From the IMG/VR virus record IMGVR_UViG_3300034095_001584: a stretch of 64,000 bases of DNA. One strand, written 5' to 3'. The translations under genes and the position numbers were made by a program. This stretch comes from a virus. Lineage: Duplodnaviria > Heunggongvirae > Uroviricota > Caudoviricetes. Shown piece after piece: positions 5,591 through 54,156 of this stretch. The notes beneath the pieces were generated by a model, which saw only the letters and a list, made by a program, of their open reading frames with translations, ran no database searches and had not been told where the DNA came from. Numbering within the stretch: position 1 is the stretch's first letter; each line of letters begins with the position of its first letter.

Positions 5591-6433
5591 ATGAAAGGAA
5601 TTATTTTATCTGGAGGAACTGGTAGTAGATTATATCCTCTTACAACAACGGTTAATAAACAATTATTACCAGTTTATGATAAACCAATGATCTACTATCC
5701 GTTATCTACAATGATAACATGTGGCATTAGAGAGTTTTGTATTATTAGTACACCAGAATATTTACCCTTGTATGAGAAATTGTTTGGTGACGGCAAACAT
5801 TTAGGTTTGGATATTTGTTATAAGGTTCAATATAAACCAAGGGGTATTGCTGAATCATTTATTATTGCTGAAGATTTTATTCAGAATGACGCTGTTGGAT
5901 TGATATTGGGAGACAATATTTTTCATGGAATGGCTAGAATGAAACCAACTTTAGATGGTGCAATTGTATTTGCATATCAAGTAAATGATCCAACTGCATA
6001 TGGTGTAATTGAGTTTAATGAAAATGGACAAGCTATTTCTATTGAAGAAAAGCCTACCAATCCAAAGAGTAACTATGCTGTTCCTGGTTTATATTTTTAT
6101 GACAATGAAGTGGTGAAACTAGCAAAGTCATTGAAGCCATCTGCTAGAGGTGAATTAGAAATCACTGATTTAAACAGAATTTATTTAGAAAAACAAAAGC
6201 TAACAGTAATACAATTTCCTAGAGGTACTGTGTGGTTGGATGCAGGAACACCTGAATCTTTATATCAAAGTGGTGCTTATATACAAACAATTCAAGAAAG
6301 ACAAGGCATTAAAATTGGATGTATTGAGGAAGATTGCTATAGAAAAAAATTTATTAATAAACAACAACTATCTAATATAGTTGACAAAATGCCTAAAAGC
6401 GAATATAAACAATACTTAGAAAAATTATTATGA
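5591..6433 (+). CDS. rmlA: glucose-1-phosphate thymidylyltransferase
   Basis: GIILSGGTGSRLYPLT, KQLLPVYDKPMIYYP, IEEKP, SARGELEITD, WLDAGT. Confidence 0.95.
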   Translation: MKGIILSGGTGSRLYPLTTTVNKQLLPVYDKPMIYYPLSTMITCGIREFCIISTPEYLPLYEKLFGDGKHLGLDICYKVQYKPRGIAESFIIAEDFIQNDAVGLILGDNIFHGMARMKPTLDGAIVFAYQVNDPTAYGVIEFNENGQAISIEEKPTNPKSNYAVPGLYFYDNEVVKLAKSLKPSARGELEITDLNRIYLEKQKLTVIQFPRGTVWLDAGTPESLYQSGAYIQTIQERQGIKIGCIEEDCYRKKFINKQQLSNIVDKMPKSEYKQYLEKLL

Positions 6434-7293
6434 TTATACTATTTGGATCAACCGGATACGTCGGAAGTGAATTTAAACGTCAATTAGAACAAAAACAAAT
6501 TGAATTTAAATGTTGGCCTAACGCAGCAAACACAACATTTTATGATTTGGAGAAATGGTATGAAAAGGCAGGATATCCAATTATTGATGCAGTAATTAAT
6601 GCGGCTGGATATACTGGAAAGCCAAACGTGGATGCATGTGAAACAAATAAAGATGTTTGTATTCACGCAAATATTATATTTCCACAAATACTAACTGATT
6701 GGTGTGTATTAAATGATATTCCACTTGGTCATGTATCAAGTGGTTGTATTTATTATGGATCTGGTCCAAACGGAACTGGATTCACTGAAGAAGATGAACC
6801 AAATTTTTCATTTGGTCAAAATAATTGTAGTATCTATAGTGGAATAAAAGCTCTTTCAGAGAAGTTAGTAAGAAAGTGGGAGAAATCGTATGTATGGAGA
6901 TTGAGGATGCCATTTGAAGAATATGACAATTCCCGTAATTTGATTAGTAAATTAGTCAAGTATCAGAAACAATTAAAGGCAGAAAATTCAATATCACACA
7001 AACAAGAATTTGTTAATGCTTGTATTGAGACGATAACCAAAAATGTTCCATATGGAATTTATAATGTAACTAACACTGGATATATTACTACTGAATTATT
7101 GGTTGAAAAACTAAAGAAAACTATTGCAAAAGATAAAGTATTTGAGTTGATTGAAGCAGATGAATTTTATAAATCTTGTGCAGTTACTCCTAGATCTAAC
7201 TGTATTTTGGATAATAGTAAGTTACTATCTACAGGCATTAAAATGAGTAGTGTAGATGAATCATTGGATTATTGTTTGAATAATTGGAAATAA
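6430..7293 (+). CDS. NDP-4-keto-6-deoxyglucose epimerase/reductase (RmlD-like, UER1-type)
   Basis: GSTGYVG Rossmann motif, NAAGYTGKPNVDACE, SSGCIY, EEDEPNF, YSGIK, RLRMP. Confidence 0.75.
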   Translation: MIILFGSTGYVGSEFKRQLEQKQIEFKCWPNAANTTFYDLEKWYEKAGYPIIDAVINAAGYTGKPNVDACETNKDVCIHANIIFPQILTDWCVLNDIPLGHVSSGCIYYGSGPNGTGFTEEDEPNFSFGQNNCSIYSGIKALSEKLVRKWEKSYVWRLRMPFEEYDNSRNLISKLVKYQKQLKAENSISHKQEFVNACIETITKNVPYGIYNVTNTGYITTELLVEKLKKTIAKDKVFELIEADEFYKSCAVTPRSNCILDNSKLLSTGIKMSSVDESLDYCLNNWK

Positions 7294-7294
7294 T

Positions 7295-8254
7295 ATGAAT
7301 ATACTAATAACAGGCGGATGTGGATTTATAGGCAGTCACTTTATTGAAGAAATTCTTAAACGTGATAATGTAGTAAAAGTTTATAATATTGATGCTGGGA
7401 CATATGCGGCTAATAAAAAACTACCATTTCAAGATGATACAAGATATCAAAGATTGAGTATGGATATTTCTGCTCCATATTTTCCTGATCAGAAGAAATA
7501 TATTGACTCACTTAATTTAGATTATGTAGTTCATTTTGCAGCGGAATCTCATGTAGATAATTCAATTAAGAGTCCAAAAAAGTTCATTGACACTAATATC
7601 AACGGTACATTTAATTTATTAGAAATGTTTAAGGGTACCAATATAAAGAAGTTTATACACATATCTACAGATGAAGTATTTGGTAGTTTAAGTTATAAAG
7701 AGAGAGAATTTAACGTTGATAGTCCATATAGACCAAATAGTCCTTATGCCGCAACAAAAGCGTCTAGTGACTTGTTAGTAAGAAGTTATGTTAAGACATA
7801 TAATTTTCCAGCTATAATCACAAATTGTAGCAATAATTTTGGTCCAAGACAATATCCAGAAAAATTAATACCAGTTTGTGTTAACAAATTGAAAAACAAA
7901 GAAAAAATACCATTATATGGAAACGGATCAAACATCAGAGATTGGATCTATGTTAAAGACCACGTTAATGCTCTAATTAATGTTTTATTGGATGGTATTG
8001 TAGGAAAACAATACTTGATTGGAGGTAACAATGAATTATCTAATATACAATTAATACACTTAATTGTTGCTACATATGAAATCATTACAAATCAAAAAGT
8101 TGACTGGGAATGGTTTGAATATGTAACAGACCGAAAAGGTCATGATTTTAGATATGCAATTGATGTCAAAGACTTTCAAATGGAATTTAATAAGTTCAAA
8201 TTAACAGATTTTAATGAGAATTTAAAAGAAACAGTTAAATCTTATATTGTTTAA
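7295..8254 (+). CDS. rmlB: dTDP-glucose 4,6-dehydratase
   Basis: ITGGCGFIGSH, HFAAESHVDNSI, HISTDEVFG, SPYAATKA, NNFGPRQYPEKLIP, RKGHDFRYA. Confidence 0.95.
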   Translation: MNILITGGCGFIGSHFIEEILKRDNVVKVYNIDAGTYAANKKLPFQDDTRYQRLSMDISAPYFPDQKKYIDSLNLDYVVHFAAESHVDNSIKSPKKFIDTNINGTFNLLEMFKGTNIKKFIHISTDEVFGSLSYKEREFNVDSPYRPNSPYAATKASSDLLVRSYVKTYNFPAIITNCSNNFGPRQYPEKLIPVCVNKLKNKEKIPLYGNGSNIRDWIYVKDHVNALINVLLDGIVGKQYLIGGNNELSNIQLIHLIVATYEIITNQKVDWEWFEYVTDRKGHDFRYAIDVKDFQMEFNKFKLTDFNENLKETVKSYIV

Positions 8255-52992: not shown

Positions 52993-52997
52993 ATATA

Positions 52998-53273
52998 TTA
53001 ACTACGTAGTAAAGCTGGTGGATATTCCGCAACTACAATTGCAGTGACTGCTTGTGCTAATTCATCATCTGTCCATTGACCTGCGGCATCATATGCATCA
53101 CCTTGCCAAACAGTATACCAATTATGGGCATATGGATTGGTACTAATTTTGACCAATGTTTTTACTGTTTTGGCTACAGGATCATCTACTGCTTGTAGAA
53201 TTTCTAGTTGATTTGTATTTGCAGCTTGTTGAATTTCAAGACTGCCTGATAAATTAATTATTGGATATGCCAT
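52998..53273 (-). CDS. small acidic putative tail-associated protein
   Basis: 91 aa; VWQGDAYDAAGQWTDDEL. Confidence 0.6.
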   Translation of the reverse strand: MAYPIINLSGSLEIQQAANTNQLEILQAVDDPVAKTVKTLVKISTNPYAHNWYTVWQGDAYDAAGQWTDDELAQAVTAIVVAEYPPALLRS

Positions 53274-53331
53274 ATATTTTTAAATCTTAAATGTTACACA
53301 AATAAATATTGTTAAATTTTAAAAAAGTAAC

Positions 53332-54156
53332 TTAATATTCATAATTAAATACTTTGTAAAACCAACTAAATTTATTATAAATATTATCGCAGTTATGTTT
53401 ACCTAGTATATCAAGATAATCATTAGGTACTGGTTTGATGACTTTTTGTATACTATGATCACCAAATGGAATATGCATTCTATCATCTTCAACAGTTTTT
53501 TGTTCTACATTATTAAAATCATGTTGATAAAATGGCAATTCTAGATATTCATATACTCTTTGCATTTCACGTTGAGGATTACTGGTGAAATTTTCAAACT
53601 TAATAAACAAACACTTTTTGCTTAACTTTCTCATAATAGTGTCATACAACACATCCATACTTACAGCAAGTGGTGGTGCTTGTAATAAGAAGTAATCTAT
53701 ACGTTTATCTACAGTAGTATTACGTAATTCATTCCAATTTTGTAGACCCGCATCAATATTTTGATGTTGTCTCCATTTCTTTTCCATACTTGCAACTACT
53801 GCTCTTAAATCTCTGACCATCACAATAACTTTTGGTTCTGGATAATACCAATTCAAAAAGTCATATGTAACACTCCAACCTCTGCTTTTATCAATTACAT
53901 ACTTTTTATCTGTAATAGCGTTAAAATATGCAAACATACCTTCTTTACATAATGCTTTAAATGCGGGTTCTACTACTTTAATATCTTGAGCTTTAAACTC
54001 AATATTAGTGGAATAGATATTTCTAGCATTTAGAAAAATTTCAATCAATCCACTTGTAGGCGTAGCATAAAAATCAGGATTTTGTGCCACCACATTTTGT
54101 AAAAGTGTTGAACCGGCTCTTGGAAGACTGCATTGAAAGAATATTTTTTCTACCAT
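53332..54156 (-). CDS. sulfotransferase (Sulfotransfer_3-like)
   Basis: SLPRAGSTLL (5'-PSB), DKSRGW, MVRDLRAVVAS (3'-PB), IKFENF. Confidence 0.9.
   Translation of the reverse strand: MVEKIFFQCSLPRAGSTLLQNVVAQNPDFYATPTSGLIEIFLNARNIYSTNIEFKAQDIKVVEPAFKALCKEGMFAYFNAITDKKYVIDKSRGWSVTYDFLNWYYPEPKVIVMVRDLRAVVASMEKKWRQHQNIDAGLQNWNELRNTTVDKRIDYFLLQAPPLAVSMDVLYDTIMRKLSKKCLFIKFENFTSNPQREMQRVYEYLELPFYQHDFNNVEQKTVEDDRMHIPFGDHSIQKVIKPVPNDYLDILGKHNCDNIYNKFSWFYKVFNYEY

Follow-up and report, generated by a model that had tools for sequence, protein, structure and literature searches.

A 64,000-nt stretch of DNA from a large uncultured freshwater T4-like myovirus (IMG/VR record IMGVR_UViG_3300034095_001584; hereafter, the window) carries an unusual number of genes for making and modifying glycans. 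They run from an RmlA-type gene at 5591 to a sulfotransferase gene ending at 54156, the span that a first-pass annotation of the bare sequence had proposed, and take up about half of the stretch. The window has a G+C content of 30%, and no tRNA genes were found in it. Pfam scans of 70 window open reading frames (ORFs) recovered a T4-type set (DNA_pol_B, AAA/DNA_pol3_delta2, Phage_clamp_A, Phage_lysozyme, and Phage_tail_APC) as well as UvdE, a PD-(D/E)XK nuclease, and two laminin-G/lectin-like proteins. The phage origin of the stretch is borne out by its T4-type family B DNA polymerase (PolB), clamp loader, gp5-like lysozyme, fibre, and fibre chaperone. A tblastn search with PolB matched 2,672 phage records, T4-like for the most part; the best cultured match is Microcystis phage Mel-JY01 (45% identity), and identity to cyanophage PolB is only ~29%–31%. 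The best bacterial matches of the RmlA-type protein (55%–61% identical) are mostly from Bacteroidota. Comparisons drew on 39 related loci in IMG/VR and on two relatives examined in full: G001, a 49-kb contig having 35% of the window's 31-mers in common, and G002, a CheckV-complete relative of 295,831 bp.

Within 5.6–54.2 kb of the window, 16 glycosyltransferase (GT) genes in 17 ORFs are supported by at least one tool (Table 1; genes are designated by their first coordinate). The first-pass annotation counted ~24 GT-like ORFs, which is an upper bound because seven of them (10896, 13206, 15360, 16691, 41510, 42108, and 44580) are leads, placed only by motifs or by language-model neighbours. Four methyltransferases are identified by Pfam (9395, 20541, 44082, and 50484) and one by hhalign (43467), and another three of the eight proposed are leads (14076, 16032, and 37624). 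All three proposed sulfotransferases were recovered, two firmly (40900 and 53332) and one exactly at the Pfam cut-off (30730). Eight nucleotide-sugar or precursor enzymes had been listed; four are firm (5591, 6430, 7295, and 17748), two weak (18895 and 19572), and two leads (17431 and 20092). The overall list of ~43 glycan genes could be reproduced gene for gene, with ~31 of them supported and ~43 as the upper bound.

Table 1. Genes and other features of the window, by position; numbers after family names are E-values
Position	Strand	Feature	Basis
3829–4356		gp62-like clamp loader subunit	Pfam
5591–6433	+	RmlA-type sugar-1-phosphate nucleotidyltransferase	Pfam NTP_transferase 9.8e-62
6430–7293	+	RmlD-like NDP-4-keto-sugar reductase	Pfam RmlD_sub_bind 2.7e-17
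7295–8254	+	RmlB-type NDP-sugar 4,6-dehydratase	Pfam GDP_Man_Dehyd 9.3e-65, Epimerase 2.3e-59
8251–21761	−	Left hypervariable AT-rich island, 18 genes	Distal part of 23-gene array
8251–9411	−	GT2 glycosyltransferase	Pfam Glycos_transf_2 5.3e-19
9395–10015	−	S-adenosylmethionine (SAM) O-methyltransferase	Pfam Methyltransf_24 2.3e-17; RMNT_CmcI 2.4e-6
10012–10899	−	GT2 glycosyltransferase	Pfam Glycos_transf_2 2.7e-13
10896–11633	−	GT-A-like, lead only	DUF707 7.6e-4, below cut-off; N-terminal GT2-type motif and DSD by eye
11633–12439	−	DUF6492 protein, probable glycosyltransferase	Pfam DUF6492 2.7e-10; DxD motif
12436–13209	−	Divergent GT8-family glycosyltransferase	121 homologues; PF01501 in 12 of 120 listed
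13206–14069	−	GT-B-like, lead only	Atlas feature neighbours carry Glyco_trans_1_2 / RXYLT1_C
14076–14627	−	Methyltransferase-like by motif only	No family match
14629–15363	−	GT-A-fold glycosyltransferase, paralogue of 42722–43498	AlphaFold2 (AF2) pLDDT 83.6 and Foldseek
15360–16019	−	GT9-like N-terminal motif only	No family match
16032–16730	−	Probable class I methyltransferase, lead only	phrog_1458 7e-24 (unknown function); hhalign 61% to Methyltransf_24 gene 9395
16691–17437	−	DUF7796 protein (GT lead)	Pfam DUF7796 2.7e-8; phrog_13607
17431–17751	−	Small cupin-like protein, 106 aa	phrog_24762
17748–18944	−	Nucleotidyltransferase fused to RpiB/LacAB sugar-phosphate isomerase	Pfam LacAB_rpiB 8.1e-36, NTP_transferase 1.1e-6
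18895–19569	−	PfkB-like sugar kinase, weak	Pfam PfkB 9.7e-4, below cut-off
19572–20099	−	HAD-type sugar phosphatase	Pfam Hydrolase_3 4.7e-6
20092–20535	−	Protein of sugar-activation module, lead	phrog_34507 only
20541–21761	−	NDP-hexose C-methyltransferase	Pfam Methyltransf_14 1.9e-44, Methyltransf_23 2e-14
21758–22459	−	Lineage-core GT2	Pfam 3.5e-12; in 33 of 39 related loci
22431–23762	−	Lineage-core GT-B glycosyltransferase	PHROG 'glycosyltransferase' 1.7e-14; in 35 of 39 loci
24426–25412	−	Lineage-core GT4, C-terminal donor-binding half, own ORF, 328 aa	Pfam Glycos_transf_1 2.5e-15; in 37 of 39 loci
25420–25950	−	Lineage-core GT4, N-terminal half, own ORF, 176 aa	Pfam Glyco_transf_4 1.1e-3
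28145–30724		Family B DNA polymerase (PolB, gp43-type)	Pfam DNA_pol_B
30730–31326	+	Sulfotransferase, borderline, inserted beside PolB	Pfam Sulfotransfer_2 2e-4, 22.0 bits at cut-off 22
32642–33592		AAA clamp loader	Pfam
35189–37627	+	GT4 and GH130 fusion, heads right island	Pfam Glycos_transf_1 and Glyco_hydro_130, each 5.1e-7
36200–45338		Right hypervariable AT-rich island	
37624–38202	+	Methyltransferase-like, lead only	Class I SAM motif by eye; no family match
38214–38924	+	GT2	Pfam 2.7e-11
38929–39615	+	GT25	Pfam Glyco_transf_25 5e-24
39612–40259	+	GT32-type DXD glycosyltransferase	Pfam Gly_transf_sug 6.7e-14
40235–40903	+	GT25	Pfam 1.5e-9
40900–41475	+	Sulfotransferase	Pfam Sulfotransfer_2 6.5e-12
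41510–42725	+	Two paralogous small DxD proteins, GT-A leads (41510, 42108)	35% identical to each other
42722–43498	+	GT-A-fold glycosyltransferase, paralogue of 14629	blastp 4e-9, hhalign 100%
43467–44063	−	Methyltransferase	hhalign 95% to Methyltransf_24 profile of gene 9395
44082–44570	−	Methyltransferase	Pfam Methyltransf_23 3.4e-10
44580–45338	−	GT9-like, lead only	Atlas rank 88, score 0.93; cluster with PF01075 in 57% of members
47508–49652		gp5-like lysozyme (baseplate) protein	Pfam
50484–51173	+	FkbM methyltransferase of fibre-linked cassette	Pfam Methyltransf_21 1.1e-9; travels with cassette
51170–52132	−	GT4-like GT-B glycosyltransferase of cassette	AF2 and homologues
52129–52905	−	GT2-like glycosyltransferase of cassette	PHROG 'glycosyltransferase' 4e-4; 513 homologues
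52998–53273	−	Small conserved cassette protein	40%–100% identical in L140–L162
53332–54156	−	Sulfotransferase of cassette	Pfam Sulfotransfer_3 8.3e-17
54196–54759	−	Tail-fibre assembly chaperone	Pfam Phage_tail_APC 3.5e-13
55531–61044	−	1837-aa fibre protein, candidate glycan acceptor	Pfam Collagen 5.3e-18
59761–60201	−	49 uninterrupted Gly-X-Y triplets, X/Y 100% Ser or Thr, no Pro	Script count

Most of the glycan genes are packed into two blocks that the first-pass annotation had described as AT-rich and tightly coupled, and base composition and gene spacing agree. GC content is 0.262 in the left block (8.25–21.76 kb) and 0.252 in the right (36.2–45.3 kb), compared with 0.31–0.36 for the core, and spacing within the array of 23 minus-strand genes (25950 to 8251) ranges from −50 to +12 nt. 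The blocks are hypervariable islands at fixed sites, a new observation of this work. On the left, homology with seven close relatives ends at 21753–21765 and continues in one locus alone (L009); the break near 21753 holds even at 98%–99% PolB identity (L002 and L007). G002 has a different 20.8-kb, 22-gene island at this site, between homologues of 5227 and 21758. The right island begins inside 35189, whose N-terminal GT4 part is conserved and whose C-terminal part diverges from ~36160–36265, and it ends at a conserved virion gene at 45381. Its genes are replaced one by one in L001, L002, L006, L007, L008, and G002; L001, for instance, swaps 37628–38937. The islands of G002 are likewise AT-rich (GC 0.256–0.285 versus 0.314).

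Comparing locus content across related phages, as the first-pass annotation had suggested, shows the same two sites occupied by other glycan genes. In ~40 loci, 408 flexible ORFs fall into 186 clusters, only 33 of which have a homologue in the window. Pfam matches among 150 flexible-cluster representatives are led by GT1 (9), GT2 (8), FkbM (8), Epimerase (7), GT11 (4), GT25 (4), GT61 (3), and DegT (3), and the relatives' islands also hold other methyltransferases, epimerase/dehydratases, DegT aminotransferases, and radical SAM enzymes. Two loci otherwise collinear with the left island (L221 and L222) provide a clean single-cassette swap, a 314-aa FkbM methyltransferase (6995–7939) standing in place of the cupin-like gene 17431–17751. 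Both large islands flank the replication module and not the structural region; only the cassette at 50.5–54.2 kb sits with tail-fibre genes.

Family searches left many proteins unnamed. PHROGs profiles on 20 unnamed ORFs were mostly blank or returned 'unknown function', NCBIfam had no match for ten lead ORFs, and single-sequence phmmer against PDB gave no useful match for 12436, 51170, 16032, or 37624. Local jackhmmer/hhalign profiles built from the related loci were shallow, yielding only the link of 43467 to Methyltransf_24 and the confirmation of paralogues. Foldseek with the AF2 model of 14629 returned 435 PDB matches at E ≤ 1e-3, the top ones overwhelmingly GT-A enzymes, including PBCV-1 A64R, ppGalNAc-T, COLGALT1, and Mimivirus R699; judged from this predicted structure, the resemblance to A64R and R699 is one of generic GT-A fold (TM 0.4–0.5) and not orthology. 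Atlas neighbours of the 41510/42108 pair come from two clusters, one named 'glycosyltransferase' and another in which 13% of the members have GT2. Where unnamed island proteins could be placed, their neighbours are mainly viral or their homologues metagenomic, which argues against recent capture from a host.

Between the islands lies a set of genes common to 33–38 of the 39 loci, in the minus-strand order GT4 N-terminal half, GT4 C-terminal half, dUTPase-like, GT-B, and GT2; it adjoins the PD-(D/E)XK nuclease, PolB, a likely sliding clamp, and the clamp loader. That four glycosyltransferase genes next to the polymerase belong to the core of the lineage is also new. By hhalign, 22431 matches both 35189 and 24426 at 100%. 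The N-terminal GT4 half is kept as a separate ORF of 176–184 aa in 37 of the 39 loci, with a gap of 7 nt between the halves in the window, and because this same-length split is so widely kept it looks like a true two-subunit GT-B enzyme of Alg13/Alg14-like logic rather than a broken gene. The dUTPase-like gene wedged among these GTs (23767–24429, minus strand) is 75%–93% identical, more conserved than its GT neighbours (46%–61% in distant relatives). The borderline sulfotransferase 30730 is a ~595-bp single-gene insertion (30750–31345) between PolB and the next core gene, missing from ten of ten aligned close relatives; the right island of G001 holds a homologue (47%) instead.

The third group of glycan genes is a small cassette next to the chaperone and the giant fibre gene. 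Its GT4-like member, 51170, has 372 homologue clusters, with a Glyco_transf_4 match in 11 of 53 near-length homologues; the AF2 model (pLDDT 96.2) resembles tll1591, BshA, MshA, PimA, and WaaG (TM ~0.7). A few homologues of the GT2-like 52129 are named glycosyltransferase. Six others (P0214, P0215, P0223, P0225, P0230, and P0239; ~430–450 aa) are fused to FkbM or Methyltransf_24, linking glycosyl transfer and methylation in one chain and paralleling the separate FkbM gene in the window. In L144–L162 the sulfotransferase 53332 is 93%–95% identical and the adjoining GT4, GT2-like, and FkbM proteins only 57%–72%, a pattern that points to either unusually strong constraint on, or recent transfer of, that one gene.

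An alignment of 52129 homologues, used as an IMG/VR query, retrieved 80 viral loci. In the 21 closest, FkbM, GT4 (51170), GT2-like (52129), the small protein (52998), and the sulfotransferase (53332) occur together, adjoining chaperone and fibre homologues. A distant group (45%–50% identity) shows a giant fibre gene, sometimes then a lectin/chaperone homologue, and after 20–30 nt the GT2-like gene, followed by a ~303-aa ORF, FkbM, a 116-aa ORF, a sulfotransferase, and a ~320-aa ORF, all co-oriented. The fibres of this group are 983–3323 aa long, and five of them have 89–432 Gly-X-Y triplets and 24%–35% Ser+Thr. Of the 80 loci, 27 extend for 6 kb or more to either side, and every one of these has a giant ORF or a fibre/chaperone/lectin homologue nearby; to put this in proportion, the 296 kb of G002 contain only 13 ORFs of at least 800 aa. 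Since many of these loci are kin, we clustered them at 65% identity. Among the resulting 14 lineages, nine show fibre evidence, seven have the sulfotransferase, and two, the largest, combine FkbM with collagen-like giant fibres. The methyltransferase/GT4/GT2-like/sulfotransferase cassette recurs beside giant fibre genes, an arrangement new here, and its linkage across divergent phages is the best positional evidence for a virion target. The fibre of the window offers a candidate acceptor in its Ser/Thr-only collagen-like tract. Two fibres of G001 have 147 and 37 such triplets, and by the same script count no Gly-X-Y tract was found in G002.

Signals for transcription give little help with timing. 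The T4 late promoter motif TATAAATA occurs exactly before rmlA (−18), 44580 (−39), and the fibre gene (~−45), but it is not enriched in the window (14 occurrences versus 19 expected) or upstream of G002 genes (six versus 3.8 expected), and we rejected it as timing evidence. A cyanophage query found no gp55 homologue, and a sigma-70 scan gave fewer matches than in shuffles and was uninformative. The region's best intrinsic-terminator-like hairpin (52936–52960; 9–11-bp stem, then a T-run) lies between the small gene 52998 and the GT2-like gene, which suggests that the sulfotransferase and small gene form one transcription unit and the two GT genes another. A TTGACA-17-TAAACT match is found just upstream.

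The first-pass annotation saw no flippase, Wzy, Wzz, or ABC exporter, and the absence of exporters holds in the window, in the complete G002, and in 1.9 Mb of related loci. No export family and no initiating phosphoglycosyl transferase has a Pfam match among the window ORFs; PF02397 (Bac_transf) is absent from G002 and G001, and PF01943 (Wzx) from G002. Neither a polytopic WecA-type candidate nor a Wzx/Wzy-like ORF with six or more transmembrane-like segments was found in the window, G001, or G002. For Wzm/Wzt, there is no ABC family match above noise among the window ORFs and no permease candidate with six transmembrane segments. A Gtr-type system (GtrA, GtrB, GtrC) was not seen in the window either, where the GT ORFs are free of transmembrane-like segments save an N-terminal one in 44580, and no protein is polytopic; the one window ORF with three or more such segments is 5227–5556 (109 aa, three segments). 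Among 1,968 ORFs in the related loci, only two have at least four, AmtB and a 231-aa protein. Two apparent exporters were rejected. An eight-segment ORF in G001 proved to be an off-frame artefact within the coding region of a fibre, and a nine-segment ORF in the 173-kb related phage contig L160 is an AmtB ammonium transporter (E = 1.9e-82 to a solved AmtB). This amtB gene (19087–20801, plus strand) lies ~9 kb from the fibre cassette of L160 and is preceded by a 112-aa ORF that is possibly PII-like.

The best-supported reading of these observations, to which we give a probability of about one half, is that the enzymes glycosylate the virion, chiefly its fibres. Soluble phage enzymes would make activated sugars, probably among them a dTDP-6-deoxyhexose, which may be C-methylated, and another supplied by the isomerase/kinase/phosphatase/nucleotidyltransferase module. 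Oligosaccharides would then be assembled in the cytoplasm of the infected cell directly on phage structural proteins, with the long fibres bearing Ser/Thr-only collagen-like tracts as the main acceptors, and O- and C-methyltransferases and sulfotransferases dependent on 3′-phosphoadenosine-5′-phosphosulfate (PAPS) would finish the glycan. The genes may be seen as three layers, which we infer to serve one product: the four lineage-core glycosyltransferase genes beside the polymerase; the two AT-rich islands, whose cassettes, exchanged between near-identical phages, would diversify the glycan as O-antigen loci do; and the methyltransferase/GT4/GT2-like/sulfotransferase cassette that travels with fibre genes. 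The lack of any membrane step, the fibre-tied enzymes, the hydroxyl-only tracts, and the viral neighbours of unnamed proteins together favour glycosylation of virion proteins in the cytoplasm. Glycosylated Thr stabilises proline-poor collagen helices.

Several observations weigh against this reading. The islands of G002 are equally large in a genome with no Gly-X-Y tract and no fibre cassette, and so are independent of that acceptor; in the window itself, the two big islands flank the replication module and not the fibre genes. Searches of G002 and G001 turned up no gene for PAPS synthesis, though G002 also has no sulfotransferase. The GTs of O-antigen pathways are as a rule soluble, and phage enzymes could supply the lipid-carrier and export machinery of the host, so that a lack of exporters does not exclude reliance on that machinery. 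Linkage to fibre genes would be no less likely if the enzymes served to mask the receptor that the fibre binds. In P22, tail-spike gene 9 lies next to the O-antigen conversion genes gtrABC, and with such neighbours known, linkage to fibres fits receptor masking as well. The first-pass annotation had preferred cytoplasmic glycosylation of the virion to conversion of the host O-antigen; the glycan load, the absence of membrane steps, and the fibre linkage speak for that preference, while its argument from missing exporters may not discriminate between the two.

Remodelling of the host envelope is accordingly the alternative that survives best, a possibility to be taken seriously if less probable than virion glycosylation. 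Phage enzymes would act on lipid-linked or periplasm-bound glycan intermediates of the host (lipopolysaccharide [LPS] O-chain or core, capsule or exopolysaccharide, or general O-glycosylation), relying on its initiating transferase, flippase or ABC exporter, and ligase. The receptor would be changed or masked, so that superinfection is blocked, progeny are not lost on infected cells and debris, or recognition by grazers is altered. Comparable islands in pelagimyophages and cyanomyophages have been read in this way, as modifying the host LPS O-chain (PMC7029224; PMC12801897). The GT2, GT4, GT8, GT25, GT9-like, and rml families are typical of LPS loci, hypervariability mirrors the diversity of host O-antigens, and genes for masking a receptor should vary and be transferred together with the fibres that bind it, as fits the cassette; the retention of islands in G002, which has no collagen-like fibres, fits too. 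Yet no initiating transferase or Gtr-type, Wzx, Wzy, or ABC component was found in the window, in G002, or in the 1.9 Mb of related loci, and the gene load is very large for a lytic phage that would have to remodel a surface within one latent period. In the distant lineages, moreover, a GT gene directly abuts the fibre gene, and the unnamed island proteins examined mainly have viral neighbours or metagenomic homologues.

Glycosylation of phage DNA bases as a defence against restriction (as in T4, RB69, and phages with a 5-methylpyrimidine dioxygenase, 5mYOX) would account for some of the enzymes at most, and we think it improbable. The main candidates are the core GTs, which are interleaved with dUTPase-like, nuclease, and polymerase genes and conserved across the lineage; phage GTs are known to hypermodify DNA with diverse glycans (bioRxiv 10.1101/2023.12.21.572611; PMC13326640). 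However, the known T-even-type pathways need a thymidylate-synthase-type hydroxymethylase/hydroxylase (PMC13326640), and PF00303 is absent from G002 and G001. A search for Tet_JBP (PF12851) found no match, but the control genomes were silent too and the result is uninformative. The methyl- and sulfotransferases, the rml genes, and ~20 variable GTs also far exceed the needs of any known DNA glycan.

That the AT-rich blocks are bacterial DNA misjoined to phage DNA, a concern raised in the first-pass annotation and one that their lower GC might seem to favour, can be dismissed with near certainty: the whole left block occurs in five assemblies of different samples (ENA, JGI, and NCBI) flanked by a constant pair of T4-type core regions (the GT4/dUTPase-like/GT-B/GT2 set to one side, a dNMP-kinase-like gene to the other), the right island and fibre cassette are found in G001 at 93%–100% protein identity, relatives carry islands at the same two sites, island genes overlap their core neighbours by 4 nt, and 158 collection blocks list a protein identical to 14629.

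The locus belongs to a known kind, the glycan-rich hypervariable islands of aquatic T4-like myophages, and what differs is the lineage, the scale, the fixed-site two-island layout with a conserved GT core, and the GT/methyltransferase/sulfotransferase cassette abutting fibres. Zaragoza-Solas et al. 2020 (PMC7029224) described a 'host recognition cluster' and LPS-gene islands in pelagimyophages and cyanomyophages. Like the window, these are aquatic T4-like myophages with non-syntenic islands between conserved replication and structural modules; they have many GT and sugar-nucleotide genes, partly tied to tail-fibre genes, with GT8 prominent and no export genes reported. The window represents another lineage, in which the islands flank the replication module at fixed sites and which has four lineage-core GTs, sulfotransferases, and many methyltransferases in addition to the fibre-abutting cassette. 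Freshwater fonsimyophages were reported to be without LPS genes (PMC7029224). The cyanophages P-SSM2, S-SCSM1, and S-SCSM2R (PMC12801897) also carry twenty-odd glycan genes each, among them GT1/2/11/25, epimerases, and a GH130-type phosphorylase. The 13 GTs of the S-SCSM2R genome have been called possibly the highest number in a marine phage (PMC12801897), whereas 16 GT genes are supported in the 64 kb of the window alone. Annotated sulfotransferases of S-SCSM1, S-SKS1, and S-SRM01 are 24%–30% identical to 53332, and that of S-SCSM1 sits among recombination genes, not beside fibres. We found no close homologue of the cassette in any cultured phage and no counterpart in the literature searched. 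Moraphages (PMC12619734) are freshwater jumbo phages of Bacteroidota hosts with four core GT orthogroups and, in eight of 25, DnaK; compared by description only, the four core GTs, the 296-kb relative, and the Bacteroidota-leaning RmlA fit, and G002 is without DnaK.

Glycosylation of capsid and tail is credited to mycobacteriophages by Freeman et al. 2023, as cited in PMC12619734 and PMC12801897. According to these citing accounts, the GTs act on capsid and tail proteins in the cytoplasm. In both, soluble phage GT genes adjoin structural genes (here the cassette beside fibre or chaperone, in nine of 14 lineages), but the mycobacteriophages as described there have one or two GTs and C-terminal acceptor sites, and the window has dozens of genes, tailoring enzymes, and swap-prone islands. 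Chloroviruses and mimiviruses glycosylate autonomously, on capsid and fibrils respectively (PMC9614988); they too encode sugar-nucleotide synthesis and GT clusters that vary between lineages, and their glycans are methylated and rich in rare sugars, but they infect eukaryotes and have another virion architecture. BclA of Bacillus is a glycosylated collagen-like protein (PMC8968730). In BclA and the Ser-rich adhesins, soluble enzymes of the GT4, GT8, and GT2 families add sugars to hydroxyl-rich repeats in the cytoplasm; the acceptors are cellular proteins with GPT or SxSx repeats, unlike a phage fibre with Gly-Ser/Thr-Ser/Thr triplets. The sugars of BclA are rhamnose and a methylated deoxy-sugar, with rml genes adjacent, and serine-rich repeat adhesins undergo cytoplasmic O-glycosylation. 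Bacterial O-antigen and capsule loci are likewise low in GC and consist of GT, rml, and methyltransferase cassettes that are exchanged horizontally at one chromosomal position; the window, unlike them, lies in a phage genome and lacks an initiating transferase, a flippase, a polymerase, a chain-length regulator, an ABC transporter, and a ligase.

Some other features of the phage may be recorded here. A stand-alone DruA-like gene (1076–2290, plus strand; Pfam DruA 5.7e-23), 77% identical in G002, adjoins UvdE. The DUF5661 protein at 45931–47487 (plus strand) has a weak intein-splicing-domain match (4.3e-5, below cut-off), and its G002 homologue spans only about half its length. A 62-kb contig of the same phage (L223, JBFDBW010002113.1) has been binned into a public metagenome-assembled genome (GCA_043530795.1), the taxonomy of which may hint at the host, unless the bin is simply contaminated.

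The purpose of phage GT islands is an open question in aquatic virology, where their genes routinely receive the label 'LPS genes' and are taken, with no experiments, to modify the host surface. With at least 16 GT genes in 64 kb, against the cultured marine-phage figure of 13, the window sets a mark for gene load. A sharper handle on the question comes from four enzymes encoded in a small conserved cassette, which is physically linked to fibre genes in many lineages, and from an obvious candidate acceptor tract. We tentatively propose that widespread uncultured aquatic phages have mucin-like fibres whose Gly-Ser/Thr-Ser/Thr tracts are O-glycosylated in the cytoplasm by the GT4/GT2-like/FkbM/sulfotransferase cassette, giving a sulfated, methylated coat diversified by cassette exchange at two islands; as stated in full, this is a good deal less certain than virion glycosylation as such. 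If the fibres are glycosylated and sulfated, models of adsorption, host range, stickiness, grazing, and mucus or particle attachment of abundant freshwater phages would change, and the hypervariable islands would count as diversity of virion antigens, not as metabolic reprogramming. Mucin-like fibres of this sort would parallel O-antigen variation on the side of the phage, and no sulfated glycoprotein would have been known from a bacterial virus before them.

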